IMG/VR virus record: IMGVR_UViG_3300047678_000102
DNA: 64,000 bases
Source: an uncultured virus (IMG/VR IMGVR_UViG_3300047678_000102)
Taxonomy: Duplodnaviria > Heunggongvirae > Uroviricota > Caudoviricetes
Direction: 5' to 3' (one strand)
Shown in pieces: positions 16,065-34,150 of this stretch. Position numbers and translations under genes: made by a program. Within the stretch, counting starts at the first letter, position 1. Each line of letters opens with the position of its first letter. Under the pieces are notes generated by a model. That model worked only from the letters and a program-made list of their open reading frames with translations. It was not told the origin of the DNA and searched no databases.

Positions 16065-16115
16065 TTTACCGTCTCCTTGAATGAGTTTCCGTTTTAACGC
16101 TTCCGCCGTTAATAA

Positions 16116-16144
16116 TTTGACGGTTAAGACAGTGTAAGGGCTTT
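16116..16144 (-). promoter_or_regulatory. Phage early promoter copy 7
   Basis: AAAGCC-N16-CGTCAAA. Confidence 0.85.
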
Positions 16145-16160
16145 TGATAGGTCAATTATT

Positions 16161-17184: not shown

Positions 17185-17190
17185 TACAAC

Positions 17191-17637: not shown

Positions 17638-17664
17638 TTTATTCCTTATGGGGTAGGGAAACCA

Positions 17665-18135
17665 TCATGTGGCGAAATCTAGATTATTATCGTCTTCATC
17701 ATCCTCATCCTCATTATTTTCATCTTTTTCGATCATAACACGATTTCCACAAACACACAAAACATTGTTATTATCATCAAAATCCAAGCTGTCCCCGTCG
17801 CACGATTGGTGGGAGGTTCCGCCACTATCACCGCACGAGTCTTGTGCCCAGAAATGCCCACACTTTGAACACCAAAACCCACTACCACCACAAGGGCACT
17901 CAATCCCCATCTTCTCGATATCGCGGTGATCACCAAACATGGTTTTCGAGTACGCGAGAAGAAGAACTTCTGAGGCATTACGAAGGAAGTCCGAGAATTT
18001 CTGAGCGCATTCTTGGTGAGAATCTCCACAGAACCCACAAGTTTCATTGATGTCTAGAGTGCCTGGCCCACAATGCGGAGCAACCCAGAATTGTTTAACG
18101 TCAGTTGGTGGTTGAAACGCTTTCTTTTTCGCCAT
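17665..18135 (-). CDS. Cys-rich zinc-binding hypothetical protein
   Basis: Several CxxC/CxC motifs; acidic tail. Confidence 0.65.
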   Translation of the reverse strand: MAKKKAFQPPTDVKQFWVAPHCGPGTLDINETCGFCGDSHQECAQKFSDFLRNASEVLLLAYSKTMFGDHRDIEKMGIECPCGGSGFWCSKCGHFWAQDSCGDSGGTSHQSCDGDSLDFDDNNNVLCVCGNRVMIEKDENNEDEDDEDDNNLDFAT

Positions 18136-18176
18136 GGTATTGATCCTTTTGAAACCATTTAATTCCCCGTTACAAG

Positions 18177-18205
18177 TTTGACGGTTTTATCATTGAAGGG
18201 GCTCT
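18177..18205 (-). promoter_or_regulatory. Phage early promoter copy 8
   Basis: AGAGCC-N16-CGTCAAA. Confidence 0.85.
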
Positions 18206-18210
18206 TCCTA

Positions 18211-18510
18211 TCAGTAATCGTCATACATCTCTTGAGGACGAGGAATTAAGAAACCCGTTATACACTCCATATCTTCGATGATCCTAATCTTTTTACCTAT
18301 TGCTTTCCCAAGGCAATCTATGTTTATTCCTCTTTTACCAATCAAAGCCCCAGGTCTTCCGGTAACAATAGTTATAATGTCTTCACACACATCAATTCTT
18401 GAGATGTATAATCTCAAGATCTCATCTTCAGCAGCACAATAGTTACCATTGTTCTTTTGGAGATAGTATTCTCCAATTTCTCGTGCCACTTGTCTTTCTT
18501 CCGATGTCAT
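18211..18510 (-). CDS. KH-domain (type II, ribosomal S3-like) RNA-binding protein
   Basis: ITIVTGRPGALIGKRGINID, GxxG loop. Confidence 0.7.
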   Translation of the reverse strand: MTSEERQVAREIGEYYLQKNNGNYCAAEDEILRLYISRIDVCEDIITIVTGRPGALIGKRGINIDCLGKAIGKKIRIIEDMECITGFLIPRPQEMYDDY

Positions 18511-18511
18511 T

Positions 18512-19072
18512 TTACAATTCCCGGATTGGTACAAACTTACCATTGTTCTTGATGACGTTATTCATGATAGCTTTGAGTCGGTGTTCGTACATTTCTTGTG
18601 TAGCCAAATCAAATCCGGCTTCTTCACGTGTCAATCCCCACCCACCTTCAAATGCACTTTCCATTTTGTCAAGATCAGAAAAATTGAAAATATCCTTCAT
18701 ATGATTGGTCATATCCCAAGAATAGCTTCTCAGAACTTGACCTACCTTCATCTTATCAAACAGTCGCACAGAAGATAGAAAAACACTGCCGATTGCGCAA
18801 ACCTGACACTTTTCCGCAATTTTGTCAATTTGCTTTTGGGCATCCCAGTTTAGCATATTCTTTGGGAAGGCATCGACAATATGTGTATATTTATACTCCT
18901 CATCATTTTTTAGTTCTAGATATGCTCCACCCATAGCGGTCAGAGTCTTTAGCTTGAGTTGTAGTAGCACATCTTTTGCTACCAAGACTGCCCTTTCTTC
19001 CATCGTCATTGCATCAAGTTCCTTCTTGGTATACTTCTTCGGGGCAGTCTTGTCGGAAGTGTTCTTGCTCAT
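18512..19072 (-). CDS. CxxCAxG family hypothetical protein (paralog 2)
   Basis: RAVLVAKDVL..CQVCAIG..MESAFE..AIMNNVIKNNGKFVP. Confidence 0.75.
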   Translation of the reverse strand: MSKNTSDKTAPKKYTKKELDAMTMEERAVLVAKDVLLQLKLKTLTAMGGAYLELKNDEEYKYTHIVDAFPKNMLNWDAQKQIDKIAEKCQVCAIGSVFLSSVRLFDKMKVGQVLRSYSWDMTNHMKDIFNFSDLDKMESAFEGGWGLTREEAGFDLATQEMYEHRLKAIMNNVIKNNGKFVPIREL

Positions 19073-19345
19073 GGTTTATTCTCCGTTGAGTTTCTTTTCT
19101 AGTTGCGACACACGATTTTCCAAAGACTTACTTCTTGATCAAGGAAGCATTGAACACGATTTCCGATCGGAAATAACGCCAATCCTTCACACTTGCCCGC
19201 TTCTGGTCCACGAAGTACTCGGCACATTCCCGAGTAACGAAAGGCTTCCGGGTGACCTGTGAGGTGCGGTAATTGCTGATAATGGCTTCCCACATAATTG
19301 AACTCCTTGGATTGAGGGGAACGTGACTAAAACCGCCGTTACAAG

Positions 19346-19374
19346 TTTGACGGTTTAGGTATTGGGAGGGCTCT
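19346..19374 (-). promoter_or_regulatory. Phage early promoter copy 9
   Basis: AGAGCC-N16-CGTCAAA. Confidence 0.85.
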
Positions 19375-20423
19375 TGGTAGGATTATCTCTTTCAATTGTG
19401 TTATCAATAGTGATCTCTGTTGGATCAACACAAATACATTCATCACAATCTAACTGAACCTCAATACACAATCCATGCGAATCATGATAAGCAGAACAGT
19501 ATCCAAAACCTTCTACTGGTTTACCATGATTGACTTTATCATATTCATTGCCGTTAGTGCCTTTGAAGTGAACGTAACGGCCAACGGCATTCATACATTG
19601 GTCATGTAGATCCATTGTTACCTCTGGGATTATCCGTCCCTCACCAAGACACTTTTCACAGTCTCTGTTATCTTTACCGCCGCTTGTGTATCTTGATCGT
19701 AGATCTGGATCAATACCAGAACCTTTACAATGGTGACACCAAATAGCCATTATTACCTCTGGGGTATGACAACACAAGTGTTCATTAAAAAATCAAATTC
19801 TACTGTAATATATTCACCATACCCTACCCATTTGGAGCATAGTTCTTTTAATTCTTTTATCTTATCTTCTTTCCAATATTTAGTCTCTTCTTTGTCTTTA
19901 TCTATGCAATATATCAATGCTTCACAATCAACCAGATCTTTGATACCAAACTCTAAAGCATCTGGACATTTGAATGTGGCCCGCATTTTCAACATTTCTT
20001 CTCCCAAGTAGCATCGCCAAGGTCCTGAAGGTCAAGATGGATCAAAGTAGCATCAATACCATCCGCTTTACCAATCCAATAATCTTCTGATCTACCATCC
20101 CTTTTGACATCACTATCAAATAGACGGTGGTAATCCCTCGCACGTTGAACGTAATAGATACTTCCCTTCAACCACCAGCGAATAAACCGAGTCATCATCC
20201 TTGTTCATTCTCCTTACGCTTTTGTTCCTTTTCATCAGCAGTACGTTGTGCTTCCAGTTTTGCTCGTTCAAAGCATTCTGGGCAAAGCATACTAAGTTCT
20301 TCACTCACACCAAATAGGTGATATCCACACACCGCATCTTCACACTCTTGGCATCTCCCTTCAGTGGCAAACTCACAAACAATACAGGCAGCAAGAGGTT
20401 TACGAGCCATTACACAAACTCCT

Positions 20424-20969
20424 TTATGGAACAAACTCACCGTTATTCTGAATAATATTTATCATGATTGCTTCAAGCTTATCACGTAGGGTTCGATACT
20501 CATTACCAAATAACACGGCTTTTTCCACCGAATCTCCATAACTCTCTTCTACGTCTTCATACATAAAAGTCACATCATGATTCTCAGATTCAAATGCAGA
20601 TTCAATCAAAAGAATCTGAACATCTGAAAATATGTTTTTCAGAATATTTCTAATCGTTTTGTTTTTAGGATTCAATCTTTCAAAGTAATCATCATATCCC
20701 ATTTCTTTGATTGTCACTTTGTTATACAATCTGACATAACTCAACACACATGCTCCAAGAGCACAAACTTGACAATCAGATTGAATCTTATCAACATATT
20801 TCTGAGCATTGTCATTTATTGTTTCGAGAGGCAAGTAAGATAACTGGGGAGAAAAGATGTATTCTCCTGATTTAACTTGAATGGTGTTGATTCGAGATAG
20901 AACGTCTTTGGCTACGTTCACTCGCATTTGAGCTCGTTCATCTAGAACCTGCTGATTCATTACTTGCAC
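20424..20969 (-). CDS. CxxCAxG family hypothetical protein (paralog 3)
   Basis: RVNVAKDVL..CQVCALGACVLSYVR..IESAFE..NIIQNNGEFVP. Confidence 0.75.
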   Translation of the reverse strand: MQVMNQQVLDERAQMRVNVAKDVLSRINTIQVKSGEYIFSPQLSYLPLETINDNAQKYVDKIQSDCQVCALGACVLSYVRLYNKVTIKEMGYDDYFERLNPKNKTIRNILKNIFSDVQILLIESAFESENHDVTFMYEDVEESYGDSVEKAVLFGNEYRTLRDKLEAIMINIIQNNGEFVP

Positions 20970-21265
20970 TCCTTTTGTCGAAGTTCTTCCAATTCAAAAA
21001 CGTCAATGTCATCACATGTATCTTCTTCGTACCAATCTACCCAAGAACCATTTTCAGAATCTGTATTGTCGGAGGAATCAAATACTTGCAATCCTCCGAT
21101 ATTACAATAATCAGGTTTGATACGATGTTCAAGTTGGAACAGGTCGTAATAAGCCAAAGTGTTGAGAATGAGCTTAGCTTCTATCAGGGTCTTGACAGAA
21201 ACATAAAATGGCTTACCAGGAACTTGTGGAATCCACCATACTCGAAGATCTCCATTTGAATCCAT
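20960..21265 (-). CDS. P22 gp17-like (superinfection exclusion-related) protein
   Basis: LRVWWIPQVPGKPFYV.V...EA...L..LA.YDLFQ....IKPDYCN.GGLQ. Confidence 0.75.
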   Translation of the reverse strand: MDSNGDLRVWWIPQVPGKPFYVSVKTLIEAKLILNTLAYYDLFQLEHRIKPDYCNIGGLQVFDSSDNTDSENGSWVDWYEEDTCDDIDVFELEELRQKECK

Positions 21266-21931
21266 TAAATGTATTCCTTTTTAGTTACGTTTGTGACGAG
21301 TGGTCAATCCTTCGAGATAATCAATAAGAGCTTGGGTTCTACGGGATCTTTCTTTGAGGAATTCGTCGAAGTTAAGGGATTCATCATAGTTATCATTCCA
21401 CCCTATAGCAGCATCCCATAGGTGGTCGTGTTCCTTATCTTTCTGAATGGCTCTTTCAGTACGGCGAACAAAAGTCCCCATACCCACGTACGTCGCATCA
21501 GGAGAATTAAACCGTCTTGCTTCAGAATTGTCTACCTCACTAACATTAGTCACAATACGTTCCACACCATCGATGAGATAAACGACACCTCCTCGTTCTC
21601 GATCATCAATATTTGAATACCAACAGTGAACTTTACGAGTTTGAAAAAGGTCGCGTAGATCTGTATCTGTCATTTGTATTCTCCAGTCAAAAAGGAATGC
21701 TGACGCCGGTTCCTTGCATCTTTTGACGCAACAATTTTTGCTCTCGTGTAAGAACCTTAACTGGTTCTACAATCTGACCTTCGAGCTGGGTGGTGTGTTT
21801 GCCGATACGGCGATTGAATTCGTAGAGACGGTTGTCCATTTGGGTTGCTAGAACGTCTACTAATCCCGGACCCTTCCATTTCCTTGATGTTGGCATCATC
21901 TACTTCCTTTAGGTTAAACTCCCGTTACAAG

Positions 21932-21960
21932 TTTGACGGTTAAGACAGTGAGAGGGCTTT
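21932..21960 (-). promoter_or_regulatory. Phage early promoter copy 10
   Basis: AAAGCC-N16-CGTCAAA. Confidence 0.85.
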
Positions 21961-22284
21961 TGAAAGATCATCTTTAAGTTCTCAGTTTATCCAATGAGGT
22001 TTCTATACTTTTCAAAGAACTGTTTGATAAACAGGTTAGTTGATTCTATTGTGGCAAAAGGACTAATTGGTAGGGTGGTTTTGAACACGTTCTTGAACTT
22101 CCTTTTGTCGTTGAAGGAACAACTGTTCCCGCCAATCACCAGGCAATTGAATCAAATTAGGGTATTCTGGATTTGCCTTGTTGATCTTTCGAGTACAATC
22201 AAGGCAATATAGTTCCCCAGTCATGGAATGAACATACACACCTTCTTCGTTACAACAAGATCTACGGCATTTCATAATTTTCCC

Positions 22285-22575
22285 CTACACATCCAGCGTT
22301 TCAGAAATTGCTTTCACTTCTTCATATGTATGACTGTCATTAAATACAATCATAGATGTGCCGTTATAGTGCTTCCGTATATAATCGTGAATCTTATCAA
22401 GGGTGTCATTCCATACAAGTTGGTCGTGTTTTCCATAACATTTCAATGCTGCGCCAAAAAAGCACCACTTACTAGCCTTTGGATCGCTAGGTTCAACTGA
22501 TTTTCCTTCGGGAGTCAAAGCTGCATTACCTTGACACCACTTAGATTTATCAGATAGAACTTCTCTAATCTTCAC
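22285..22575 (-). CDS. DUF6197-like protein (paralog)
   Basis: LSDKSKWCQG..KWCFFGA..FNDSHTYEEV. Confidence 0.65.
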   Translation of the reverse strand: MKIREVLSDKSKWCQGNAALTPEGKSVEPSDPKASKWCFFGAALKCYGKHDQLVWNDTLDKIHDYIRKHYNGTSMIVFNDSHTYEEVKAISETLDV

Positions 22576-22588
22576 TATTTAACTCCTG

Positions 22589-22891
22589 TTAGATATCAAG
22601 ATGATCAAGAACTTCTTTTACTTCTTCAAAACGATGACTATCATTGAACTGAGGAATGTTCATTTTGAACTTCTTCCAAAGATAATCCGAAAGCTTATTA
22701 CAACGATCCGAAGTGTCAGTATTGATATAATCCTCTATGGGACATGCAATATCTCCACCAGATAGGCACCAACAACAAGCGTTGGGATCATTGGGAGATA
22801 CTTGATCACCATTAGAATTTCTGGCATATACATGTTGGGTCCATTTAGATGCATCAGAAAAGAACTCGCGTAGTTTCATAGATATTCTCAT
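22589..22891 (-). CDS. DUF6197-like protein (tandem paralog)
   Basis: KWTQHVYAR..CCWCLSG..FNDSHRFEEV. Confidence 0.65.
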   Translation of the reverse strand: MRISMKLREFFSDASKWTQHVYARNSNGDQVSPNDPNACCWCLSGGDIACPIEDYINTDTSDRCNKLSDYLWKKFKMNIPQFNDSHRFEEVKEVLDHLDI

Positions 22892-22923
22892 AAGAGTGTA
22901 AATGAGACGCTTCCGCCTAATAA

Positions 22924-22952
22924 TTTGACGGTTTAAGTAGTGTTAAGGCTCT
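22924..22952 (-). promoter_or_regulatory. Phage early promoter copy 11
   Basis: AGAGCC-N16-CGTCAAA. Confidence 0.85.
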
Positions 22953-24682
22953 TGATTAGATCAGTTACCGGTAGGGTCTATAATCAGAAGGATCTTCTTG
23001 AGCAGATATGAAATTCACAGCGTCTTGACATGTTTCGAACAACTCTCGGTCAACTTCCCACCACATAAATGGGATTTTCTTTTCGATGTTTTGTTTTACT
23101 ATTGGATCATCAAGAACGTATAGACGACCACATAGTATCAATGCATGTTCAATATCTTCCATAGTTCTAACTGGATACTGATGCACTCCATCCTCTGCAC
23201 CATATTGGTACCAACCCTTGTCATCCAAACAAATCCAATATCCTTGAGTGGTTACTGCTATATAGTCTTTGTCTTTACCAGGATCACTGGTTTCAGGATT
23301 GCGTAGAAATTCAGTGGCAGATTTGAGATTATCGAACTCCCCAATTCTTGTAATAAACTTTTCAGTACTAGTGTCAAGAATATGTAGAGTAAGCATAATT
23401 ACACTCCAACGTATCTCTTGATGAAATTCAAAAGAAAATTAATGTCATGTTGAATCAAATATTGGTTTCTAAACATTTCTTGGGTAGGGTTATTCCATTG
23501 TTCTTTAATGAGTTTGTAACCTCCCATCATTTCACAATCTTTTTCTGCATCAGGATCTCTAAGAGCAAATTGCTTCATGCATAATTTGGTGAGATCCGCT
23601 ACATCAAGTTCCCTGATATCTTCTACAGTGGCAAATTCCCTACCACATTTCTCACAGGATTGTGCCATAAATCCTCCTGTAGTTTTCATAGTTGAGAGGC
23701 TTCTCTTGGATCATACTCGCAACAGCGGAACAAATAATTGCTTGTTGCGAAAGAGATAACTGACAATTCATGTCAAAGAACATATACTCATCTCTGTTAT
23801 TGTTCTCTTCAATAGTTCCAACATATTTATCACCAAAATACACTTGGTACTCACCAAATGGGCGATTGTTAGGTGCATCGTAAATAATGGTTACTTCCAC
23901 CTTCATGTCAGACTCCTTTTACTCCATAGATTCGTAGTTGTTATCTGCGAGCAGATTCTTCAAAGAAAGCCACTTCTTACCCAATGGCTTCCAGAAATCT
24001 AACTGCTTTTCTAACTCTTCAATTCTCTTTTCATTCCTCTCAATCATGCTATTACTGATATGGTAAGCTTGCTCGCTACACCCTTGCATAAGTACCATAC
24101 CAACTGCCAACTGAGTGGCTTTGGGATTATCTGGGAACGCTTTCATAGCATCTTCAAGAGTCAGTTTCTTTTCTTGCATTTTCAAAACCCCAATTGAGCA
24201 TTTGGCGTTCCTTCTCCTTATCCCTCCAAATATCAGCAATATTCATGATAAGGTTGTTAATCGTTACAACAAACTCTTCTGGAAAAATCTCATCCCTCAT
24301 TAGTAGACCACGGACATTTTGCAAATCTCTTTGAACTTCTTGAATCACACATAGATCTTGTGCCAAGTTAATGATTTTTGTATATCATTAGGTTTTTTCC
24401 ATCACACAATCTCCTTAGTAGACAATGTATCCTCTTCCCATATTATCTAGTCGAAAAGCTAGATCCTCTAGGAAGGCTTCAACTTCATCAGAAGTGCCAT
24501 TTTGAGTAAGTTGGAAAGTGGCCATACCAATGGCTTAGTAAAGATCAACTTGATGATCAAAGACAACACCAGTGGTCGTCTCACCATACATCCCACGACC
24601 ACTGTAATCTTCATGTATGGTCAATCCATCGTTATCTGCAGCGCACAGAGCTTGAGCAGTTTCAAGACGCATACGTATCTCC

Positions 24683-25210
24683 TTAGTTAGTGAGAAGGTA
24701 TTTCCGGTCCACTTCGTCCATCTGTAAAAGCCAACAACACCTTACGAAATTAGCATGAATTTCAAATCCATTATCAAGAAGCGAATCGTGAAGAGGATAT
24801 GCACACTCACTATCTGTTTCGAACGCAATAACAAGATCGTTTAATGAATTGGGAAACTCAATACCTTCAATCATACGTTCCCAAACAATCTTACGAACTG
24901 TTTCAAGATAAAATTTGGAATACTTGCTCCTAAGATATCGGTTGCCGTATTTAGATTTTGCTTCCCATTCCCGCGCACATTTTATCCGTGCCCAATTGTC
25001 CTGATTGATCCCGTCAGAACCAGTCCAATAATGACCTTCTGTTCTAGCAATTGATCCGCCTTTTTGGCGGTAGGATTCTATGATATGTCCAGAGAAGATA
25101 CAAGCATGCTTAGGATCCGCCCCATTTTCTACTGCCACATTGTAAGCAGTGATTAGAACTTCTTTTGTGGCATCTGTAAACTTCTTGATGTCCCAAATGT
25201 GGGTGGACAT
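24683..25210 (-). CDS. Hypothetical protein, paralog of 17191..17637
   Basis: Start re-placed at MSTHIW; C-terminal PLHDSLLDNGFEIHANFVR. Confidence 0.7.
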   Translation of the reverse strand: MSTHIWDIKKFTDATKEVLITAYNVAVENGADPKHACIFSGHIIESYRQKGGSIARTEGHYWTGSDGINQDNWARIKCAREWEAKSKYGNRYLRSKYSKFYLETVRKIVWERMIEGIEFPNSLNDLVIAFETDSECAYPLHDSLLDNGFEIHANFVRCCWLLQMDEVDRKYLLTN

Positions 25211-25258
25211 TAGAGTTCCTTTGGTAAAATTCGAACCCATACAACAGCAAAATAAAAG

Positions 25259-25345
25259 TAGCCACACTCGGATTCGAACCGAGACCCCCAATTACGGGGA
25301 CAGGATTTTAAATCCTGCGCGTATCACCAGTTTCGCCATGTGGCC
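25259..25345 (-). tRNA. tRNA-Leu(UAA)
   Basis: GGCCACA/TGTGGCT; CAGGA-TTTAAAA-TCCTG; long variable arm; TTCGAAT; no CCA. Confidence 0.9.
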
Positions 25346-25353
25346 ATAAACAG

Positions 25354-25438
25354 TGCTCCCGGTGGGGATCGAACCCACTTGTGGATTACTCCACGGTAGA
25401 TTAAAAGTCTACTGCCCATCCATTTAGGCGTCGAGAGC
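25354..25438 (-). tRNA. tRNA-Lys(UUU) with atypical long variable arm
   Basis: GCTCTCG/CGGGAGC; GTAGA-CTTTTAA-TCTAC; extra GTGGA-GTAA-TCCAC arm; GTGGG-TTCGATC-CCCAC. Confidence 0.8.
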
Positions 25439-25611
25439 AAATGTTATTAAAGTTTGTTTATTGTGACACCAAGTTTTTCAAGCCTTTTTCTTATTGATTC
25501 ATAATTAGCTCCTTTTGGAGAGAGGTTTATGGCGAACCAACGCGAGCTTTCGTTCTAAGCATCTCACACTCTCCTCGGTAGGAAGTTTGTAACCGCGCCG
25601 CCCGTTAATAA

Positions 25612-25640
25612 TTTGACGGTTAGGAGAGTGCCAGGGCTCG
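25612..25640 (-). promoter_or_regulatory. Phage early promoter copy 12 (drives tRNA pair)
   Basis: CGAGCC-N16-CGTCAAA variant. Confidence 0.8.
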
Positions 25641-26224
25641 TGATTTATTAAATCTAATCCAATTGAAAATTATAGGGGGGGTCTTTCAGTTACATTCATC
25701 CATTGAGAACTTTCTTCCAACCATTGTAAAAGACATTTTCTGTTACAGAAGTGGTTTACATATCTTGGAACACTTGCTCCGTCTTCCCATTGTGGTTCTG
25801 AAAACAACACTATCCTATCCCAATTACTACCTTTTTGGAGCTTGTTTAGGCATTGATCACAAGTGATAGTCACTTCTACTTTTCTTCCCATCAGTTAGAT
25901 CCCCTTTTAGTTAGACCATAATACTTCACTCTCTTGCCATATAGTAGTTTTCACTACTCTGAATAGATATTTTTCTTTCTTAATTGATTCTTTGTTTAGT
26001 AGATTATACAATTTCAATGCAATCTCTACATTAAACGTACCGTTTACTCCTGTCTCTTGCCAACACTTACCAGAAGCACTAAACTCATACCAAACATCTT
26101 TTTTAGAAACATAATATTCTGGTGATACCCAGGCAGAATCAAAGTTTATTTCATTCCATTCTTTTCTTTCTTTGTCTGCAAACTCAATAGTGAAGATCTC
26201 AAATCTACCATCATTAGGCAGCAT

Positions 26225-26977
26225 TTACTCACCCTTCATGATAAGATGAATGGATTCAAAATCTTTAGTAACAGAAGATAATAGTTCTGCAATAGATGGG
26301 GCTTTCTTGTAATAAATCTTCTTTGGCATGAAACTATCACCCTTATCTTTCTGTTTACTGATACACTGTGATGCAACACAAGCCTTTATATTTCCTATAG
26401 AAGTCTTGTATGCTCTGTAGGTATATCTTGTGGTTGGACTCTCCCAGATCTCTTCTTTACCCGTTTCAAGAATTCTCTTCTGACGTTCTTCACTAGCAAA
26501 TAATTGATAGTAGTATTCTGATTTGAATGCAAACTGCTTATCGTGACAGAGGTAGATATCCCATGATTGACCAGTCAGTGTCCATTCATCAATCTTACTA
26601 GATGGGGTAGAACTTCCAGTGAAGTAGTTAGGCACTAACTTTCCATAAACATCACTATACTTTCTTCGTCCAGCAAGATAGTCTTCTTCGCATAGATTCA
26701 TTGCCTCTTCAATATGAGGATGTTCACCATATCCATGTTGCTTACGTTTTTCATCATTGTCTTCAATTGAAACTACCCGTAAACCACCACCCGATCGAAA
26801 GCAATGAATGTGACGTGCACATTCTCCTCGTTCCATCAAACACTTAGTCAACCCTGGATACGTTCCAAACACCATTGGTTTTTCTACTGGTTGAACAGTG
26901 AATCCATCTTCCCTATCTCCAACAATCTCACTACCACTAATGATTTCACCAATATGTACCTTGGGTGTATCAGACAT
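26225..26977 (-). CDS. Hypothetical protein
   Basis: 250-aa ORF with AAGGA RBS. Confidence 0.7.
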   Translation of the reverse strand: MSDTPKVHIGEIISGSEIVGDREDGFTVQPVEKPMVFGTYPGLTKCLMERGECARHIHCFRSGGGLRVVSIEDNDEKRKQHGYGEHPHIEEAMNLCEEDYLAGRRKYSDVYGKLVPNYFTGSSTPSSKIDEWTLTGQSWDIYLCHDKQFAFKSEYYYQLFASEERQKRILETGKEEIWESPTTRYTYRAYKTSIGNIKACVASQCISKQKDKGDSFMPKKIYYKKAPSIAELLSSVTKDFESIHLIMKGE

Positions 26978-27013
26978 TTGATTAGTCCTTTTTGGTTAGG
27001 TTTGTATAGAGAT

Positions 27014-27098
27014 TGGGCAGTGGAGGATTTGAACCTCTCGGGTACCACCTGTCATATTATCCCACCAGATTTACAGTCTGGCGACAGGAACACCACCC
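27014..27098 (-). tRNA. Non-canonical tRNA-Tyr(GUA)-like RNA, rewired D-arm, 8/4 fold
   Basis: GGGTGGTG/CACTGCCC; CCTGTCG/TGACAGG helix around CCAGA-CTGTAAA-TCTGG; TGGTA after it; GAGG-TTCAAAT-CCTC. Confidence 0.75.
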
Positions 27099-27103
27099 AC
27101 AAG

Positions 27104-27790
27104 TTACTGCTTCTTCAGTAACTTGACACCAGGAGATTTCAGTTCTTTCAACACATCAAGAGCCAAATCTGCTGCCATTTCAAGATATTTATCACAACCA
27201 GTCGTTCCATATCCAGAGATCCTATGATGGTTTACTTGCAACCCTTCAATAAAATCTCTGGCCATACCAGAGAAGGAACCATGATCTATTTTAGAACGAT
27301 ATCCAACTAAATGACAAGCGATGTTATTGACCGTATCATTTTGATATTGTGAATTGTTATAGAGGCGTTTGATTGATTTGGCGTCTCCATTCTTCTCGCA
27401 CAAATCAACATCATCTTTGAATTTGTTTGGATAATAACACCGCATAAATTCTGGTAGCATTACTTGAACTAATTTCTTGAACATCCTTTTCATAAATTCA
27501 CGGCTATCTACAACACCCTTACTACCAAGTTGCGCCAACCCAAGATCATGCAGACCTTCTGATCTTGTGTATTCGGTTTTCCAATCCAAATCGTTCAGTG
27601 CGATTTTGAAAGCTCTTACAGAAGAAGTCACGCATTTAGGATCATCTCCATGTGGGAGACCAAGTGTCTCACAAATTGCTGCTTCGATACATACTTGTTC
27701 TCCTTGGTCTCCAACACCACTACAAAGACCACGACCAAGGATTTCTTCATACTTACGAAGATCAAACTTCTTCAAAACAAAAGCACTCAT
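27104..27790 (-). CDS. Hypothetical protein, paralog of 36915..37616
   Basis: RGLC.G.G..VCIEAAIC..LGLPH.DDP.CV..LGLAQLGSKGVVD. Confidence 0.75.
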   Translation of the reverse strand: MSAFVLKKFDLRKYEEILGRGLCSGVGDQGEQVCIEAAICETLGLPHGDDPKCVTSSVRAFKIALNDLDWKTEYTRSEGLHDLGLAQLGSKGVVDSREFMKRMFKKLVQVMLPEFMRCYYPNKFKDDVDLCEKNGDAKSIKRLYNNSQYQNDTVNNIACHLVGYRSKIDHGSFSGMARDFIEGLQVNHHRISGYGTTGCDKYLEMAADLALDVLKELKSPGVKLLKKQ

Positions 27791-27821
27791 TATTTCTCCT
27801 TTAGAATTTACCGCTTACAAG

Positions 27822-27850
27822 TTTGACGGTTTAAGTAGCTCTAAGGCTCT
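27822..27850 (-). promoter_or_regulatory. Phage early promoter copy 13
   Basis: AGAGCC-N16-CGTCAAA. Confidence 0.85.
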
Positions 27851-30006
27851 TGGTAGATTTAGGCTTAGGGATCTCTCTTAACACTCTTCGATATTCTTCT
27901 CTTGGTAAATACACTTTACTAAACACTAATTCTGCTTCATCCCAGTCTGTACCAATAAAATCTGCCACCAGACACTTCACCTCTAATATGGCTACGTGCA
28001 TCCAATTAGATTCTTTTTCTTGACTGTATACATGAATACCATTATAAACAATATGTAAATCGTCGCATTTATGCCCAAATCTTATATTAGACGATCTATC
28101 TGATACGTTCCACCCTTCTTTCCATAAGAATCCGCTATACGTGGGGGATCGTATATGCTTCTTTAATGTCATAGTATATCCTGTGTGGGCCAACTTATAG
28201 GCCCACACAAACTTGTTGTTTTGATTCTTTTCTAAGAACTTATTACTCTTCTCTACACTAGCAAATAAACACATTAGGGTTTTGCTCCGTTATTAGGTTT
28301 GGGACTCGTCTGAGAAGGTGCCAGACGATGTACCACGAATAGTTTAGGCTTGTTTAGGTTCCCTAATCTTCTTAGTAACCGGATCAAATTCATTAGCTTC
28401 AAGTTGCATCACATTACGCAATCCATATCCATAAGATAGTGTTGCTACTGTACCATCAGTAAAGTGGAAATACCATCTATTAGTAGCACTGGCGTTTACT
28501 CTTTCTACAATCTTTCCACCAAATAGAATATCACATCGTTCTTGTTGTGTCATTCTTCTTCATCCCTATCAGTAGCATAGATCAATCCTTCAAGACCACC
28601 ACGAGAAGCAAGTTGTTTCATGAGGGTATCAGCAGTTTCCTTACCAACTTTTTCTACCCACATTCGGTACATTTCTTGATGTACTTGATTGTCTTCATCT
28701 TCAAAATAGTTCTCATCAAGAAATGCTGCCAGTTGTTCTCCATCTGCATCAGTAGCGAGAGGAGCTTCACCTTCTACTTCAGTATCCCAACAAAGAATCT
28801 TGATTGGGTTCTTACCATCCCAGGGAACAAGATCTTCGTTTTCATCTTCTTGCGCCCAAACAATATGTTGTAGATGATCTACATCTTTGTAAAAATCAGT
28901 TCCTCTATCATCATGTCCTATAATAGGTTGACAAGAGAATTCAATGCACAATCTGATGGTAAACATCAGAATAAATACTGTAAGAATGGCACACATCAAA
29001 CTAAACAAAAAGACGATCATTACTTCTCCTTTGCCAAAGGGATTCTTTTAGGTGGTGGACCACTAACATAATTCAATCCACCTACCGTTTTATTCATGAA
29101 CTCATGAAAATCAAATGGTACATACCCATCAACGAATGGTTTGTCATTCTCATCACGGTGGGGAAGATGAGGGTCACCACCGTTTGCTTGATGATACATT
29201 GTGAGGGTTTCACCAGTATCATTCTGATAGATATATGGGTGTGCATACTTTTCTGGTTTGTATCTGTTTTTGGGGTCTCGGAGATATGCTAAATGTTTCT
29301 CGGTATCTTTCGACACTTCTACTGCACCCACTTCAAAGTAACTCCAATCACAGATATACCAGAAGTAGTAACCAGGAGTTTGTGGTAGCTTTGACATTGT
29401 ATCCCTTGAAATGGATGAAGTTAGTCTATCCTCTTGAACTTCTCAGGAATGTTACCAGAAACGATTTGTTCCCACTCTTCGTCTGAGCATAATTTTGGAG
29501 TATTGAGAATAAGAACCCCACCACTACCAGAATAAGTTAGGATGTTCTCGTCAGTTCGATAATAAAACATACTGTCCCATAGATTAAGATTAGCTCCTCC
29601 CCATTCTTTTATGAATTGTTCATAAAGATTAGATTTGATTTTTCGAGCAATGAGAACACCCTTGAGTGGGTCCTTTTGCCAATAGGATGCCTTTTGTTCG
29701 CCAACAGTAACTTTCCATTCATATTGAGATTTGATCTTGCCCCATTCTTCTGCTTTCTTCTTTGCGAGATCTTCTTTTTGTTTCTTCTCTTCTGCCTCAA
29801 TCTTTTCAATCTCAGCAAGCAGCTCATCTTTACGAGACATTATTCAACTCCACAAGACATGGCTTTAAATCTTGCACACAGATAAATAATTAGGCCATAC
29901 ACAAAGAACACCAATTCACCTTCTGTAACAAACAGAAAGATTCCAGTATGTAGAACAATCATTGCAAACAATACATTTATCCATCCATATGCCCTTAAAT
30001 ACATAA

Positions 30007-30423
30007 TTACTCCTTGATCTTTTCAATCTTAACAATACGATACTGAGTGCTACCAAACCAAGGTGGGGAAAAGAAATACTGTTCGTAGTGAACCCGAACA
30101 AAATCCTTTGCCGTAACACCTTCCAAATCCGCCCTGGTTCTATCATCAAGCACTGAGAATTCAAACACATTACTGAGTTGAGAGCTATCACCAGTCCCAA
30201 CCATCTTCAACCCAGGCAGAGCCATCTCCCCTTCCCAAGTCTTCCATATGATTCCCTTGTGAGAGAACTTCTGGATGTGTCCATCTCGATATCCTGATGA
30301 ATAGGAGATGCCACCCTTCATCAATCCAACGCCACATCCACCACATGCAAGGAGACATCCACCAACAACTACCAATCCAATAAGAGTATGGGCGTTGAAA
30401 GACGATCCATTATTACGAGACAT
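30007..30423 (-). CDS. Membrane-anchored conserved protein
   Basis: N-terminal hydrophobic helix; YSSGYRDG.IQKFSHKGIIWKTWEGE. Confidence 0.7.
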   Translation of the reverse strand: MSRNNGSSFNAHTLIGLVVVGGCLLACGGCGVGLMKGGISYSSGYRDGHIQKFSHKGIIWKTWEGEMALPGLKMVGTGDSSQLSNVFEFSVLDDRTRADLEGVTAKDFVRVHYEQYFFSPPWFGSTQYRIVKIEKIKE

Positions 30424-30651
30424 ACTTACTATTCTCCCCTAATTTCTCGAATACGGGTCTTTAAGGTGTCCACAACACCGTAGTTAATATGCACTGTTGT
30501 TACATCAACACCTTTGGTGACACGAAGAACATACTGAGTACTCCCGTAAGGACACTCCATCAGTTCGTATGTGTTACCAAATTCGTGGATGGTTGCTTTT
30601 GCACATGGGTGTCCATCGTATACAGAATCAGTAAATTGCCAAGCCATTTAT

Positions 30652-31239
30652 TTACCTTTCTGGATTACAGATACACATATCAAGATGTTTGCACTTCTCA
30701 CAAACTTCTTCCAACATAGGGAGTTCTTCCTTTAGAACATATCGGAAGGCATAAGCGTCTTCGTATGTGTCTTGGAAGACCCGTCGCTTCACAGCAGTAG
30801 CTTGAAATCCCATTTTCTTTAGGAATAGTTGGCCATCAAGATTACTTTCGCGGACTTCAATGGTAACCCGAGATCGCCGATGGATAGACAACTTGGAGAT
30901 CATCTTGTTGATCATCCTCCTACCATATCCCTTACAACGATCATCGGGATGAACGGCTAGATTAACCAATTTCAAGTTGTTCTTGTATAGTTCGTAGATC
31001 ATATATCCCTTGATCTCTTCACCAACCTCGCAAATCATGCCAATACAGTTGCGGGAGCGAAGAGCCCGAATGAAGTCTTCTTCCACCCAGGGTTGGGTAA
31101 AACTACGCTGCTCAATGGCAAGGATTTCTGCCATATCTCGGCGGATCATCCATCGGATGTGGGGATTGTTAGAACTGAAAGGATTAGTAGCTTCGGGCTC
31201 TTGGCTCACACCGGCTTCGGGAATTGAATCACTAATCAT
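30652..31239 (-). CDS. rimI: RimI-like GNAT N-acetyltransferase
   Basis: IRWMIRRDMAEILAIEQRSF..W.EEDF..LR.RNCIGM..NLAVHP..GYGR..EVRESNL..QLF..KMGF. Confidence 0.85.
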   Translation of the reverse strand: MISDSIPEAGVSQEPEATNPFSSNNPHIRWMIRRDMAEILAIEQRSFTQPWVEEDFIRALRSRNCIGMICEVGEEIKGYMIYELYKNNLKLVNLAVHPDDRCKGYGRRMINKMISKLSIHRRSRVTIEVRESNLDGQLFLKKMGFQATAVKRRVFQDTYEDAYAFRYVLKEELPMLEEVCEKCKHLDMCICNPER

Positions 31240-31294
31240 TGAATAGAACTCCTGGAATTACACCCTTGGTTAAACCCGTTTCCGCCGCTAATAA

Positions 31295-31323
31295 TTTGAC
31301 GTTTTAATCACTACTGGGGCTCT
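31295..31323 (-). promoter_or_regulatory. Phage early promoter copy 14
   Basis: AGAGCC-N16-CGTCAAA. Confidence 0.85.
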
Positions 31324-31511
31324 TGTTAGATCAGCTCTTCGGAGTCCACTTATTGGTGACACCATAACCATTCTGATAGGGAATAACCTGATGCGGGATC
31401 ACGGTCTTCACAGACAACTTGTAAGCCTGTGCGTTTGCCTTGGTCTTGTCACGATAGATGGTCATTTTCCGTCTCCTTCAAACTGTGAGGAAGTTAAACC
31501 GCCGCTAATAA

Positions 31512-31540
31512 TTTGACGGGTTAGGTAGTGTGAGGGCTTT
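31512..31540 (-). promoter_or_regulatory. Phage early promoter copy 15
   Basis: AAAGCC-N16-CGTCAAA. Confidence 0.85.
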
Positions 31541-31560
31541 TACTTAGCCAATAGGAGTAG

Positions 31561-31632
31561 TAGGCCTGGGTGGAGTCGAACCACCGTTAGGACTTTATAA
31601 GAATCCCGTTCTAACCGTTGAACTACAGGCCA
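31561..31632 (-). tRNA. tRNA-Ile(UAU)
   Basis: GGATT-CTTATAA-AGTCC anticodon arm; GGTGG-TTCGACT-CCACC; U1:U72 mismatch. Confidence 0.85.
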
Positions 31633-31633
31633 A

Positions 31634-31705
31634 TGGGCCAGACAGGATTCGAACCTGTAACCAAGGAATTATGAGTTCCCTGCACCACCATTGTGCTACT
31701 GGCCC
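31634..31705 (-). tRNA. tRNA(CAU), probably Ile2 (alternatively Met)
   Basis: GGGCCAG/CTGGCCC-A; GGGAA-CTCATAA-TTCCT; ACAGG-TTCGAAT-CCTGT. Confidence 0.85.
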
Positions 31706-32221
31706 AATCGTTTTTATCCCTATTTTTCCATCCCTTGTCCAAGATCAGTCATTTCTTGCAATGCTTGTTTGGTTTCTTCTTCTGTGGGACGTTTCTTACG
31801 CATAGGAATAGCTCTAATTTCAAAATCTATTAACTCTAGTTCTCTTCCGTCTTCCATCAGAACTAGATAGCAAAGGGAATGATGATCGGGAAGTATATCT
31901 CCAGGCACCAAAAGGATTTCATCACCATGGACGAAATCATCAAGCTCATCGCCTTTTGGATCATACCAACTGTGTTCAACCATTGCAATTATAGTGCCAT
32001 ACAATCCCTCATCACTCTTTTTAGGGTGACGATCTCTGCCACAATACCCATCCATGTCAACACGTTTAATTCTTACTCTACGACCACGACCACGACCTAG
32101 TACTGTATGCGCCATGTTAACCCTCTCCTCCAAGATCAATCCACAGATCTTCAAAATGATCAATGTGATCGTCGTTCATGGAAAGTCCTCCGTGAGAGTA
32201 GAGTGAGTGTGAATCAATAAC

Positions 32222-32259
32222 GAAACAGGGGGGAGTAAACTGCTACTCCCCCCTGTTTC
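32222..32259 (-). terminator. Terminator hairpin after wHTH paralog 2
   Basis: GAAACAGGGGGGAGTA/TACTCCCCCCTGTTTC stem. Confidence 0.75.
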
Positions 32260-32271
32260 TAACGGTTGATA

Positions 32272-32586
32272 TTACACACCAGCGGTCGCCGGTGCAACAC
32301 TATACAGACCCTTCTCTTCATCGACGATCAGATGACGGCTGATGCCCTTACCCTTGTTCATCCAGTGCTTGAAGTGGGCAACGACCCGCTTTCCGCTCTC
32401 AGCACCCGCCTCCTTGGCAATCTGATCTGCCGTCTTGGGAGTGGAATCAACCACAAGGTTGATTCGGGCAGGCTCACGACCCAAGAGGCAACCGTGCGGC
32501 TCCTTGGAATAGATCTCGAAGCCCTTCGTCATGGCCTCACAATTGTGCTTACGGGTGTAAGTAACCTTGGACTTCTGCTCGTTCAT
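32272..32586 (-). CDS. wHTH-like protein, HFxxWxxxxRGI family (paralog 2)
   Basis: HGCLLGREPARIN..PKTADQIAKEAG..RVVAHFKHWMNKGKGI. Confidence 0.75.
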   Translation of the reverse strand: MNEQKSKVTYTRKHNCEAMTKGFEIYSKEPHGCLLGREPARINLVVDSTPKTADQIAKEAGAESGKRVVAHFKHWMNKGKGISRHLIVDEEKGLYSVAPATAGV

Positions 32587-32647
32587 AACTCGTAACTCCT
32601 AAACGTGGTTGAGAAAACTACAACCGGGTCTAACCGCCCGTTAAAAG

Positions 32648-32676
32648 TTTGACGTTTTAACGGTTCTCAAGGCTCT
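32648..32676 (-). promoter_or_regulatory. Phage early promoter copy 16
   Basis: AGAGCC-N16-CGTCAAA. Confidence 0.85.
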
Positions 32677-32679
32677 TGG

Positions 32680-33225
32680 TTATTCATAAACTTTAACTTG
32701 AAGCCATTTATTAGATTGCCAGAAGTCCTCAACCGTACCAGGATTGCCCCAAGTAGGAATAAGGGAAGGTTGAGTAATCTTAGTAGGATCGTAGAATGGC
32801 ACGTTACCAGGTCCAAATCTAAAACCATTAGAATCTTTTGTTCTAATGGTTAGAACACTTCCAAGTGGGCCATTAAACTTCAATCCTAGTCGGTGGAGGA
32901 CATTTCTAACGGCAATGTCTTGGATATGTGTAGAGAATGCTTCTTGTTTGGAATAATCTAATCCAGATTGAATGTTGGTTGGAGCATTGTCAATACATTC
33001 TCCGAAACAACAAATGAAATCTAGATCTTTTGGTCGATCCTTCAGATACTGGAAGTAGGATTCTTCATATGCTTCTTTACATGCTTGGACAAAATCCATT
33101 TCCTTATCATCTAAAATCCAAACCAACCTCCAATAACCTTCTCCATACGTTGTATTGTAACCATTGATTTTTCTATCTCGTTGACGGCCAAAGTATCCTG
33201 GCCTTTCTATACTGGTCCATGTCAT
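32680..33225 (-). CDS. Conserved hypothetical protein
   Basis: RPGYFG..YEESY..THIQDIAVRN..VEDFWQSNK. Confidence 0.7.
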   Translation of the reverse strand: MTWTSIERPGYFGRQRDRKINGYNTTYGEGYWRLVWILDDKEMDFVQACKEAYEESYFQYLKDRPKDLDFICCFGECIDNAPTNIQSGLDYSKQEAFSTHIQDIAVRNVLHRLGLKFNGPLGSVLTIRTKDSNGFRFGPGNVPFYDPTKITQPSLIPTWGNPGTVEDFWQSNKWLQVKVYE

Positions 33226-33736
33226 TTATTTCTGCTCCTTATACAAATCCCTAATTAACTCAACTGATTCTTGTGGTACCCCAATTTTACCATCACTCAC
33301 TGTTGCTCTAATTACTAATTGTTTTCCATCCCGTAGCAACAATCTCCAAAATGGGATAAACTTCTTATCTGGATGAATTTCTTTTGCATGATCTTTAAGT
33401 TCTTGTAAGACTTCATCAAAGTCAAGAAAATCAATGAGTTCAATATCCATGTTATGTTAATCCCTTTTCCAAGGAGTACCAATCCACCAATCTGGTGGCT
33501 CAATGTCAATATCTGGAGTTACCTCACTGTAAGGACCACTAAAACTAGATTCTGATGCTACTGCCGTCCTATCGGTGAAATACACTACTTCGGCATTGTC
33601 AGAAGGTTTTACATCGTAATTATAATAATTGCTATCATGATCGTAATCAATAGTCTTGCCTTGAGCAAACTCAAGAGCTTCCGCCATTGTACAAGTCTTC
33701 CACCTCATTTCACCCTTTTTATACATCTTAATATAC

Positions 33737-34150
33737 CTACCAAGTTTGGAAGATACCAGCCATTTCCGTCACTTCTTTAGCAAAACTTTCTGGAATAACA
33801 ACATTCTTAGGTGCTACCATAAACATAGGTGCGATTTGCTTTGGTTTAAATCCTGCCGCACCACATCCAATTTCAGTAAGAAGGAACTTTTCTTCTGGAT
33901 GTTGAGAAGCATGTTCTATAAATTTATCTACAGACTTCTCAATCTCCATGAGCGTTACTTCCCCACGGTTAGGATCTTGGTTAACTGTGGGAATAGCGTA
34001 AGATTGCCCTTGCCTTCCTTCTGCTTTACCCATTTCAGCTCCCCATTCATTCAATGCACAACGTGCTCCACCACCATCGTGGTTGCCCTTTGTGTTAGAG
34101 CCAAAGACTAATACACAATCTGGTGTCGCATGTTTCCTTGTATAGAACAT
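33737..34150 (-). CDS. A1S_2505-like phage protein (macro-like fold)
   Basis: VFGSN..G.H.GG.A..A...GA..G..EG.QGQSYAIPT..FLLTEIGCG.AG. Confidence 0.75.
   Translation of the reverse strand: MFYTRKHATPDCVLVFGSNTKGNHDGGGARCALNEWGAEMGKAEGRQGQSYAIPTVNQDPNRGEVTLMEIEKSVDKFIEHASQHPEEKFLLTEIGCGAAGFKPKQIAPMFMVAPKNVVIPESFAKEVTEMAGIFQTW

Follow-up and report, generated by a model that had tools for sequence, protein, structure and literature searches.

Candidate tRNA genes with a reordered core in an uncultured Caudoviricetes virus and in other phages

Does an adaptor RNA that works outside organelles have to be a cloverleaf? The accessible text of a 2024 paper states that all known bacterial tRNAs are cloverleaves (PMC11551756). 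The question is raised here by an 85-nucleotide (nt) stretch, positions 27014-27098, of a 64,000-nt piece of DNA from an uncultured virus of the Caudoviricetes (IMG/VR record IMGVR_UViG_3300047678_000102); the whole piece is called the window below. The stretch resembles a tRNA-Tyr with anticodon GUA, and a second stretch of the window resembles a tRNA-Arg with anticodon UCU. A first-pass annotation had described both as one class of rewired RNA that lacks a 5′ D hairpin and has a helix around the anticodon arm. Judging from sequence comparison, the answer is that tRNA-like adaptors outside organelles need not be cloverleaves. The rewired RNAs are most likely working tRNAs with a reordered core, and we put at roughly 0.78 the probability that both window RNAs come from true tRNA genes of a phage, with an alternative scaffold whose core modules are reordered.

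Two RNAs with an enclosing helix

The Tyr element lies between two open reading frames (ORFs) of the minus strand, 5 nt past the stop of one (27104-27790) and 36 nt ahead of the start of the other (26225-26977). It is of an 8/4 type, with 8 base pairs (bp) in the acceptor stem and 4 in the T stem, and its parts are as follows.

27098-27014 (-): putative rewired tRNA-Tyr(GUA), 8/4 type, 85 nt, delimited from the sequence, the minimum free energy (MFE) fold and aligned homologs
27098-27091 with 27022-27015 (-): acceptor stem, 8 bp (7 bp plus G-C), 5′ and 3′ strands
27090-27089 (-): UU
27088-27083 with 27053-27048 (-): enclosing helix, 6 bp, CCTGTC/GACAGG, 5′ and 3′ strands
27082 (-): single G between the enclosing helix and the anticodon stem
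27081-27077 with 27069-27065 (-): anticodon stem, 5 bp, CCAGA/TCTGG
27076-27070 (-): anticodon loop CTGTAAA, with the anticodon GTA at 27074-27072
27064-27054 (-): variable region, 11 unpaired nt
27047-27043 (-): UGGUA
27042-27038 (-): connector, 5 nt
27037-27034 with 27026-27023 (-): T stem, 4 bp
27033-27027 (-): T loop TTCAAAT
27014 (-): discriminator A; CCA is not encoded

The MFE structure computed by RNAfold has exactly this enclosing-helix topology, at -30.1 kcal/mol. The helix had first been read as seven pairs, CCTGTCG/TGACAGG; six of these are conserved, and the seventh is instead a G.U at the position that corresponds to 26/44. The element was called neither by ARAGORN nor by Rfam at its gathering threshold. 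Its top Rfam match was tRNA-Sec (RF01852) with 29.3 bits, below the 47-bit cut-off, and its anticodon is GUA, not UCA. A covariance model of the 8/4 family (R1), whose training set included the element, scored it at 90.1 bits. Identical DNA occurs in a contig from another sample and another study, which covers 26507-27381 with zero differences, and window DNA is also present in moss-metagenome runs. The sequencing-run contigs over the window have no variants within the Tyr element or the Arg element. The proteins that flank the Tyr element have no relatives among viral contigs, and a Megablast search of window positions 14000-34000 against phages gave no match.

The Arg element is of a 7/5 type and can be divided in the same way.

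15597-15523 (-): putative rewired tRNA-Arg(UCU), 7/5 type, 75 nt, delimited from the Rfam tRNA match, a homolog in phage Atu_ph04 and family alignments
15597-15591 with 15530-15524 (-): acceptor stem, 7 bp
15590-15588 (-): U8 A9 U
15587-15585 with 15563-15561 (-): enclosing helix, 3 bp, CGG with CCG
15583-15579 with 15571-15567 (-): anticodon stem
15578-15572 (-): anticodon loop, with the anticodon TCT at 15576-15574
15560-15553 (-): D-loop-like string TAACTGGA; string and connector together span 15560-15548
15547-15531 (-): T arm, with a 5-bp stem
15523 (-): discriminator A

This element scored 36.1 bits with the Rfam tRNA model, above the 29-bit gathering cut-off, in an alignment that deletes the D arm, and 78.3 bits with a covariance model of the 7/5 family (R2). 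The claim that both RNAs lack a 5′ D hairpin is borne out by the sequences and by this alignment. A GG-containing, D-loop-like string does stand ahead of a normal T arm, as had been proposed (TGGTA in the Tyr element, TAACTGGA in the Arg element). An acceptor and T-arm pair scan of the window revealed no further rewired element, and R1 and R2 confirmed one member each. The window also holds a doubtful 103-nt candidate at 741-843 (-), with a 7-bp acceptor-like pairing, a 5-bp T-arm-like hairpin and no recognisable anticodon arm.

Covariation and identity elements in two families

Relatives of the Arg element were collected by pattern scans of IMG/VR, the counts of which are lower bounds and not a census. 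A locus passed if it had at least 6 of 7 acceptor pairs and at least 4 of 5 T-stem pairs in register. With the helix fixed as CGG/CCG, 71 of 119 loci passed among the matches listed, and a stricter pattern gave 69 loci in total. When the 3′ strand of the helix was left free and the second base of its 5′ strand was required not to be G, 119 of 120 passed among the matches listed. A pattern that demanded a base other than A after the GG and left all six helix bases free yielded 113 of 120, again among the matches listed. The chance matches set aside came to 48 of 120 in the CGG/CCG scan and 7 of 120 in the non-A scan, both among the matches listed. More than 300 members of the 7/5 family, 74-79 nt long, were parsed from the matches listed in these scans. 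The proposed class of two members is thus real and far larger than supposed, but it falls into two architectures, in which a 3-bp helix goes with 7/5 and a 6-bp helix with 8/4.

Covariation was examined in an alignment (A3) of 150 distinct 7/5 sequences, in which the helix was fixed by the search pattern in 50 and its 3′ strand was unconstrained in 100. The first pair of the enclosing helix (columns 11-42) is CG in 107 sequences, GC in 19, AU in 15 and UA in 9, and the second (12-41) is CG in 66, GC in 50, UA in 21 and AU in 13; both are unpaired in 0 of 150. Pairing is nearly complete in the acceptor (99.1% of cells), the anticodon stem (99.8%, with all four counted pairs covarying) and the T stem (99.6%). 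Overall, 98.2% of cells are paired, against 61.1% in shuffled alignments, and the covariation score was reached by none of 500 shuffles. Sliding the partners by 1-3 columns as a control left 37-46% paired. In the Ile scan, where the helix bases were free, all three enclosing-helix pairs form in 108 of 113 members and two of three in the other 5, among the matches listed. A covariance model built from A3 gave 62-83 bits to members, including Ile members on which it had not been trained (from contig L136 and Streptomyces phage Jay2Jay), and at most 33 bits to canonical tRNAs.

The 8/4 family is rarer, with 14 distinct members. Patterns that combined the anticodon loop and the T loop with GGTGGTA brought out its relatives in IMG/VR and in metagenome contigs. 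Nine of the ten loci from the metagenome-contig scan are true, and one (L201) was set aside as a chance match. A relaxed pattern contributed five more members (two Tyr, two Arg(UCU) and one Ile(UAU)), all with six of six helix pairs; the other 16 of its 21 matches were set aside, 13 as one canonical tRNA-Glu family and three as earlier members found again. A search with R1 returned a second copy in one contig, in which AU replaces UU and the helix is CCTAAC/GTTAGG. One metagenomic array with two rewired tRNA-Tyr genes also contains a tRNA to which ARAGORN assigns an anticodon loop of 8 nt and an anticodon of four bases (gatt; L200:768-842, +).

Eight aligned 8/4 sequences, the window copy included, measure 82-91 nt and share the 8-bp acceptor, UU, the 6-bp helix, a 5-bp anticodon stem, a variable stretch of 8-15 nt with no conserved pairing, UGGUA, a connector of 5-7 nt, a 4-bp T stem and A73. 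The eighth acceptor pair, on which the earlier assignment of the Tyr copy to 8/4 depends, is kept in all eight (GC 6, UA 1, UG 1). All 48 enclosing-helix cells are paired, and three of the pairs show double changes; of the three invariant pairs, two had been set by the search pattern. Paired cells amount to 97.8% overall, a value reached by 0 of 500 shuffles, and to 98.4% in the acceptor, 90.6% in the T stem and 100% in the anticodon stem. RNAalifold independently gave the same fold for this alignment, with the G.U at the 26/44-like position in addition.

The helix around the anticodon arm therefore covaries in both families. Its failure to do so had been named beforehand, together with the lack of a stable or charged RNA, as what would count against the idea. 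The covariance models that had been called for each find the members of their own family, and R1 and R2 together score members at 62-97 bits and canonical tRNAs at no more than 33 bits. Since covariation is seen in hundreds of diverged copies, the rewired RNAs are neither chance folds nor pseudogenes; that they are more than chance follows from the homologs and their covariation, not from the single-sequence fold.

The bases that synthetases read vary with the anticodon. Among the matches listed, the 119 members with GGA have the anticodons UCU (52), ACG (52), UCG (8), CCU (5), GCG (1) and GAU (1), and the discriminator in 100 distinct sequences is G in 46, A in 37 and U in 17, so that A or G is found in 83 of 100. 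Members in which another base follows the GG have UAU (95), GAU (11) or CAU (7) and a discriminator A in 113 of 113, both among the matches listed. A73 is a determinant for Ile. The Tyr members of the 8/4 family have A73 in 11 of 11. The available portion of PMC9976931 gives A20, C35, U/G36 and A/G73 as the Arg identity set and A73, G34 and U35 as the bacterial Tyr set. The identity elements of the rewired RNAs follow the anticodon, and the Arg and Tyr bases agree with these published sets (PMC9976931, as far as its accessible part goes). This coupling of anticodon, position-20-like base and discriminator speaks for aminoacylated tRNAs and against decoys. CCA is encoded in 87 of 119 GGA/Arg members and 9 of 113 Ile members, among the matches listed, and in 9 of 14 members of the 8/4 family. 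The rewired genes sit in ordinary tRNA arrays. A separate canonical tRNA-Arg(tct) occurs within 10 kb at 4 of 69 loci (387 ARAGORN tRNAs), and there is no canonical tRNA-Tyr among the 63 ARAGORN calls in the 8/4 loci. The rewired genes seem to fill the isoacceptor slot, although these counts are suggestive only.

Spread of the families, the nested copy and the window

Cultured carriers of the 7/5 family include 44 Streptomyces and 3 Microbacterium phage records. The annotation under the cultured-phage matches listed was 'none', except for two records of one phage: in Streptomyces phage EGole (MK494112.1 / NC_055791.1, 75271-75330) 'tRNA-Leu' is annotated over the rewired-family match. Streptomyces phage Jay2Jay (NC_029098.1) has, at about 75.24-75.31 kb, an unannotated Ile(GAU) member with an Rfam tRNA score of 30.8 bits. 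When the nested region described below was compared with cultured phages by blastn, most matches joined its outer exons to ordinary tRNA-Arg genes, and one, in Agrobacterium phage Atu_ph04 (MF403007.1), spanned the inner element. The Atu_ph04 homolog, an Arg(UCU) member at about 112.82 kb, has the same layout, different acceptor and anticodon stems and an encoded CCA; it is unannotated and ARAGORN-negative. Three Tyr-type members had no blastn match in cultured phages.

That standard scanners would miss such genes proved right: ARAGORN called 1 of 69 Arg-family members at the pattern site, and the Tyr copy of the window escaped both programs. Three of six 7/5 members tested reached the Rfam tRNA gathering score (30.8-38.7 bits) and three did not, and none of four 8/4 members did. 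The best match of the 8/4 type in the Rfam library is tRNA-Sec, with 29.3 and 36.1 bits, below the 47-bit cut-off. A generic structural scanner was too strict, for it missed the Ile and Arg-ACG members, and it gave one false positive, a canonical tRNA-Ser in contig L147.

In prokaryotes, with one genome per species (185,579 species), 39 loci matched the general pattern and 35 passed. These matches are mostly on contigs of metagenome-assembled genomes, and the two that were examined lie at the edge of arrays of 19-25 tRNA genes. The possibility that a lineage of Blastocatellia uses the rewired Arg RNA as its own tRNA was rejected; the gene was found in 6 of 151 genomes of the class, at the edge of 19-25-gene tRNA arrays. 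Because of this rarity and the array-edge position, the 7/5 family is taken to be essentially one of phages or mobile arrays.

One 45-kb phage contig (L136, IMGVR_UViG_3300037067_024448) carries four rewired tRNAs in one array, with three different enclosing helices:

L136:4877-4953 (-): putative rewired tRNA-Ile(GAU)
L136:9685-9760 (-): putative rewired tRNA-Arg(ACG)
L136:9889-9964 (-): putative rewired tRNA-Arg(CCU)
L136:9971-10046 (-): putative rewired tRNA-Arg(UCU)

In another contig (L040, IMGVR_UViG_3300034106_000381) a rewired tRNA-Arg at about 394-470 is broken, its T stem and the 3′ strand of its acceptor gone, and a canonical tRNA-Arg(tct) follows directly at about 491-567. Other ARAGORN-negative stretches, 85-109 nt long, have a perfect 7-bp acceptor and 5-bp T arm around an unusual or enlarged middle and belong to neither family:

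L130:2963-3056
L150:17938-18031
L139:18896-19004
L157:12050-12157
L182:17745-17829

The Arg element of the window had been described as nested, and it does lie inside an 86-nt insertion in a canonical tRNA gene, as detected by ARAGORN with introns allowed:

15634-15474 (-): canonical tRNA-Arg(UCU) with an interrupted anticodon loop; ARAGORN -i output: tRNA-Arg c[15474,15634] (tct) i(38,86)

Exon 1 covers 15634-15598, the insertion is at 37/38, and exon 2 runs to 15474. The insertion consists of the complete rewired element plus 11-12 nt, with a junction that is ambiguous by one A. The insertion ends in a stretch with AGAAG (15516-15512), which is able to pair with CTTCT (15602-15598) of the outer loop. 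In the MFE fold of the 161-nt nested region the outer cloverleaf has an extended anticodon helix with the inner tRNA on top (-56.6 kcal/mol, z -2.82, 1 of 200 shuffles equally good). Homologous exons in annotated tRNA-Arg genes of other phages give blastn matches 63-81 nt apart, without the insertion. No second case of the nested arrangement was found in about 1.2 Mb of related loci. ARAGORN with introns allowed produced many spurious 'introns' by joining adjacent array tRNAs, none of which resembled the nested arrangement. Apparent joints at 15504-15609 in run contigs were rejected as insertion polymorphism; they are tRNAs of other organisms that match the outer exons. Like the intron of archaeal and eukaryotic pre-tRNAs, the insertion is at 37/38 and its end pairs with anticodon bases (CTTCT/AGAAG); unlike such an intron, it is itself a whole tRNA. 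It has no strict 3-4-3 bulge-helix-bulge: opposite the 5′ site there are 7 unpaired nt, the helix has 5 bp, and the bulge of the 3′ side is 2 nt long. A Pfam scan of 129 window ORFs turned up no splicing endonuclease family. The simplest reading is that the rewired gene replaced the canonical tRNA-Arg by inserting into it, and that release of the inner RNA by RNase P and RNase Z destroys the outer one. Simple cuts by these two enzymes would leave a 12-nt surplus in the loop of the outer tRNA-Arg, which weighs against the tRNA acting as an intron.

The window as a whole is phage-like, with small ORFs almost all on one strand and mostly without a family match. It encodes six canonical tRNAs, and AGA is its commonest Arg codon (170 of 427, in 38 ORFs). 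Genes with RNA-repair-like products lie at two places:

37648-38790 (-): Rnl1-like RNA ligase
40134-40781 (-): HD_4 protein
40938-41369 (-): AAA_33 kinase, with a 179-amino-acid ORF adjacent
60175-60900 (-): Rnl2-type RNA ligase

This gene set (37648-41905 and 60175-60900) suggests a phage exposed to tRNA-cleaving defence. A tRNA-Lys(UUU) at 25354-25438 (-), 85 nt long, scores 44.7 bits with the Rfam tRNA model and adjoins a tRNA-Leu(UAA); its class-II-like variable region of 17 nt with a 5-bp hairpin is unusual for tRNA-Lys. Three paralogous DUF6197 genes (6268-6546, 22285-22575 and 22589-22891, all -) were also noted, together with a superinfection-exclusion gene like gp17 (20960-21265) and a gene like DMP19 (48607-49152). 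Positions 1-4000 have 53% G+C, compared with 37-45% elsewhere, and ORFs without a Pfam match.

A proposed fold and its rivals

In the fold that we propose, the acceptor stem, T arm and anticodon arm would be standard and only the core modules reordered. The 3′ half of the D stem (22-25) would come directly after positions 8-9 and be continued by the anticodon stem. The 5′ half of the D stem (10-13) would follow the anticodon arm, set off from it by a short variable linker, and be succeeded by the D-loop-like string with G18-G19, a connector and the T stem; the D-stem-like helix would enclose the anticodon arm rather than close a D loop. In canonical numbering the predicted order is 1-7, 8-9, 22-25, 26, 27-43, the variable linker, 10-13, 14-20 with G18 and G19, a connector (about 46-48) and 49-76, as if segments 10-21 and 22-44 had exchanged places. 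The enclosing helix probably stacks on the anticodon stem and would give the anticodon branch its usual length. In the 7/5 type the stack would be 3 bp, a U.U, a 26-like base and 5 bp, about 10 layers, where a normal tRNA has 4 + 1 + 5; in the 8/4 type it would be 6 + 1 + 5 = 12 layers, as in tRNA-Sec or allo-tRNA. The acceptor/T branch would stay at 12 bp in both (7/5 or 8/4), and the GG string could reach the T loop with the L shape kept. Classical contacts in tRNA-Phe comprise the triples 9-12-23, 45-10-25 and 46-13-22 and the 8-14-21, 26-44 and 15-48 interactions. Because the new junctions (9 to 22, 43/44 to 10 and 20/21 to 46-48) join residues that already touch in tRNA-Phe, the L shape and the contact of G18G19 with the T loop could be retained. 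RNase P and RNase Z would free the RNAs from operon transcripts, and CCA would be added to those whose genes lack it; once charged by the ArgRS, IleRS or TyrRS of the host, they would serve the phage in decoding AGA, AUA/AUY and UAY codons.

Canonical tRNA-Arg, -Ile and -Tyr (RF00005) share much with these RNAs: the 7-bp acceptor, 5-bp T stem, GTTCRA loop, 5-bp anticodon stem and 7-nt loop of the 7/5 type, as well as a length of 74-79 nt, a GG like G18G19, an isotype-specific discriminator, location in arrays and, in most, an encoded CCA. Both rewired types have the 12 bp of acceptor plus T arm, the T-loop consensus, the 5-bp anticodon stem, the 7-nt loop, U33 and a purine at 37 that a cloverleaf has. 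They differ in that no D hairpin stands between 9 and 26, where only 4-9 nt lead from position 9 to the anticodon stem, in a central junction that is three-way rather than four-way, and in D-stem-like strands that flank the anticodon arm. Permuted and split tRNA genes of Cyanidioschyzon and Archaea also depart from the canonical order of modules. In these, however, RNA processing restores a canonical tRNA and permutation moves the 5′ and 3′ ends, whereas the rewired genes have acceptor strands in normal order and two internal modules swapped, and it is the encoded order that folds and covaries.

D-armless mitochondrial tRNAs (for example nematode and mammalian tRNA-Ser), which are covered by a 2020 review of non-canonical tRNAs (PMC7609411), resemble the rewired RNAs in having no 5′ D hairpin and a three-way junction, and they still serve translation. 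They are truncated, flexible and devoid of the D/T-loop contact, whereas the phage forms are full-length, with a helix and a GG string; the terms 'phage' and 'permut' are absent from the accessible part of the review. The 8/4 and 9/3 tRNAs (allo-tRNA, tRNA-Ser and tRNA-His) and tRNA-Sec are like the Tyr type in their 8-bp acceptor, 4-bp T stem, 6-bp D-stem-like helix and very short loop, going by the available text of PMC5389517. In allo-tRNA and tRNA-Sec, however, a tetraloop caps the long D stem, which lies 5′ of the anticodon arm, and the same text mentions no tyrosine species and no such wiring (PMC5389517). The 8/4 phage type further differs from them in having 8-15 unpaired nt and not a long variable hairpin, and in its anticodons GUA, UCU and UAU. 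The engineered D-armless 'mini HisT' of evolved E. coli provides a non-cloverleaf that is accepted by a bacterial synthetase (HisRS), EF-Tu and the ribosome; it is man-made, whereas the phage families would be natural (PMC11551756, in its accessible text). A prior description of the rewired wiring, for which a literature check had been advised, was not found in full-text searches, which left subscription journals and supplements outside their coverage; one may exist and have been overlooked, which we think unlikely but by no means far-fetched.

One alternative is that the RNAs are processed like tRNAs yet do not decode, and act as decoys or sponges for anticodon nucleases or tRNA-binding defence proteins. 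The repair-like genes of the window (Rnl1-like, AAA_33, HD domain and Rnl2-like) fit exposure to tRNA-targeting defence, Arg and Tyr isotypes are targets of known anticodon nucleases, and the rewired fold is unlike the usual substrate of host enzymes. However, the discriminator and the position-20-like base switch with the anticodon between Arg and Ile (A73 in 113 of 113 Ile members among the matches listed), and this coupling disfavours a decoy because an anticodon-nuclease decoy has no need of it. Most members also encode CCA, canonical isoacceptors are scarce nearby and both branch lengths of the L are kept. We consider mimicry improbable. A further idea is that the elements are punctuation or regulatory signals, kept solely for cleavage by RNase P and RNase Z. 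The place of the Tyr element inside an operon, 5 nt after one stop and 36 nt before the next start, would suit it, but cleavage signals need the acceptor and T arm alone, and here the anticodon loop, the anticodon and isotype-specific bases are kept too, in genes that stand in ordinary tRNA arrays; this makes the idea very unlikely.

It is scarcely credible, in our estimate, that the transcripts are precursors which phage RNA ligases cut and re-join into cloverleaves, in the manner of the permuted or split tRNA genes of some algae and archaea. Two RNA ligases and a kinase are at hand in the window, and all modules of a canonical D arm are present, reordered; yet each RNA would have to be cut twice, have two internal segments exchanged and be ligated twice, the modules are not flanked by bulge-helix-bulge motifs, and no splicing endonuclease family was detected in the 129 window ORFs scanned. 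The enclosing helix, moreover, covaries as a nested helix, so that the encoded order itself is under selection. Decayed pseudogenes or chance tRNA-like folds might be suspected from the rejection by standard finders, the unremarkable stability of the single Tyr fold and the broken copy in L040. They are refuted by the covariation: compensatory changes keep every helix, 0 of 500 shuffles match and the models separate members (62-97 bits) from canonical tRNAs (at most 33), which reduces this explanation to a negligible one.

Several points weigh against the interpretation as working tRNAs with a reordered core. The evidence is comparative throughout, for every member. Neither window copy encodes CCA, and the fold of the Tyr sequence taken singly is not significant (z -1.78; 9 of 200 shuffles as stable). 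The third pair of the enclosing helix in A3 (13-40) is paired in 111 of 149 sequences and unpaired in 38 of 149, and in some Tyr members only three of the four T-stem pairs form. Some bases were fixed by the search patterns (U8 A9 U, UAAYUGGA, CC/GG of the Tyr helix, UGGUA and parts of the T loop; U33 and A37 in the 119-member GGA set, and U33 and R37 in part overall), so their invariance is uninformative about conservation. The replacement counts remain suggestive because a rewired gene was the criterion by which the loci were chosen. Decoys for anticodon nucleases, too, would need a faithful anticodon arm and processing signals.

If the RNAs are working tRNAs, the scaffold may have been favoured because it resists host or phage tRNases or other factors that recognise the D arm; alternatively, a neutral variant may simply have spread. 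A bolder version is that a functional scaffold with permuted core evolved at least twice in phages (7/5 and 8/4), for Arg, Ile and Tyr, was selected for keeping the L shape that synthetases, EF-Tu and the ribosome recognise while evading D-arm-reading factors, and in the nested copy also serves as a 'tRNA intron'; excision by RNase P and RNase Z would then leave a 3′-OH and a 5′-phosphate that phage Rnl-type ligases could seal. We regard this version as doubtful.

Should the RNAs be charged and used, they would be natural tRNAs whose core is wired differently, carried by cultured bacterial viruses as well as by hundreds of phage contigs. They would account for the Arg, Ile and Tyr tRNAs that seem 'missing' from phage sets, given that ARAGORN misses such genes, Rfam catches some and curated records leave them unannotated. 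They would offer unusual, ready-made scaffolds for orthogonal tRNA engineering and a testable link to tRNA-targeting phage defence. As natural counter-examples, in phages of bacteria, to the statement that all bacterial tRNAs are cloverleaves (PMC11551756, accessible text), they would help to separate what is historical accident in the cloverleaf from what the translation machinery requires.

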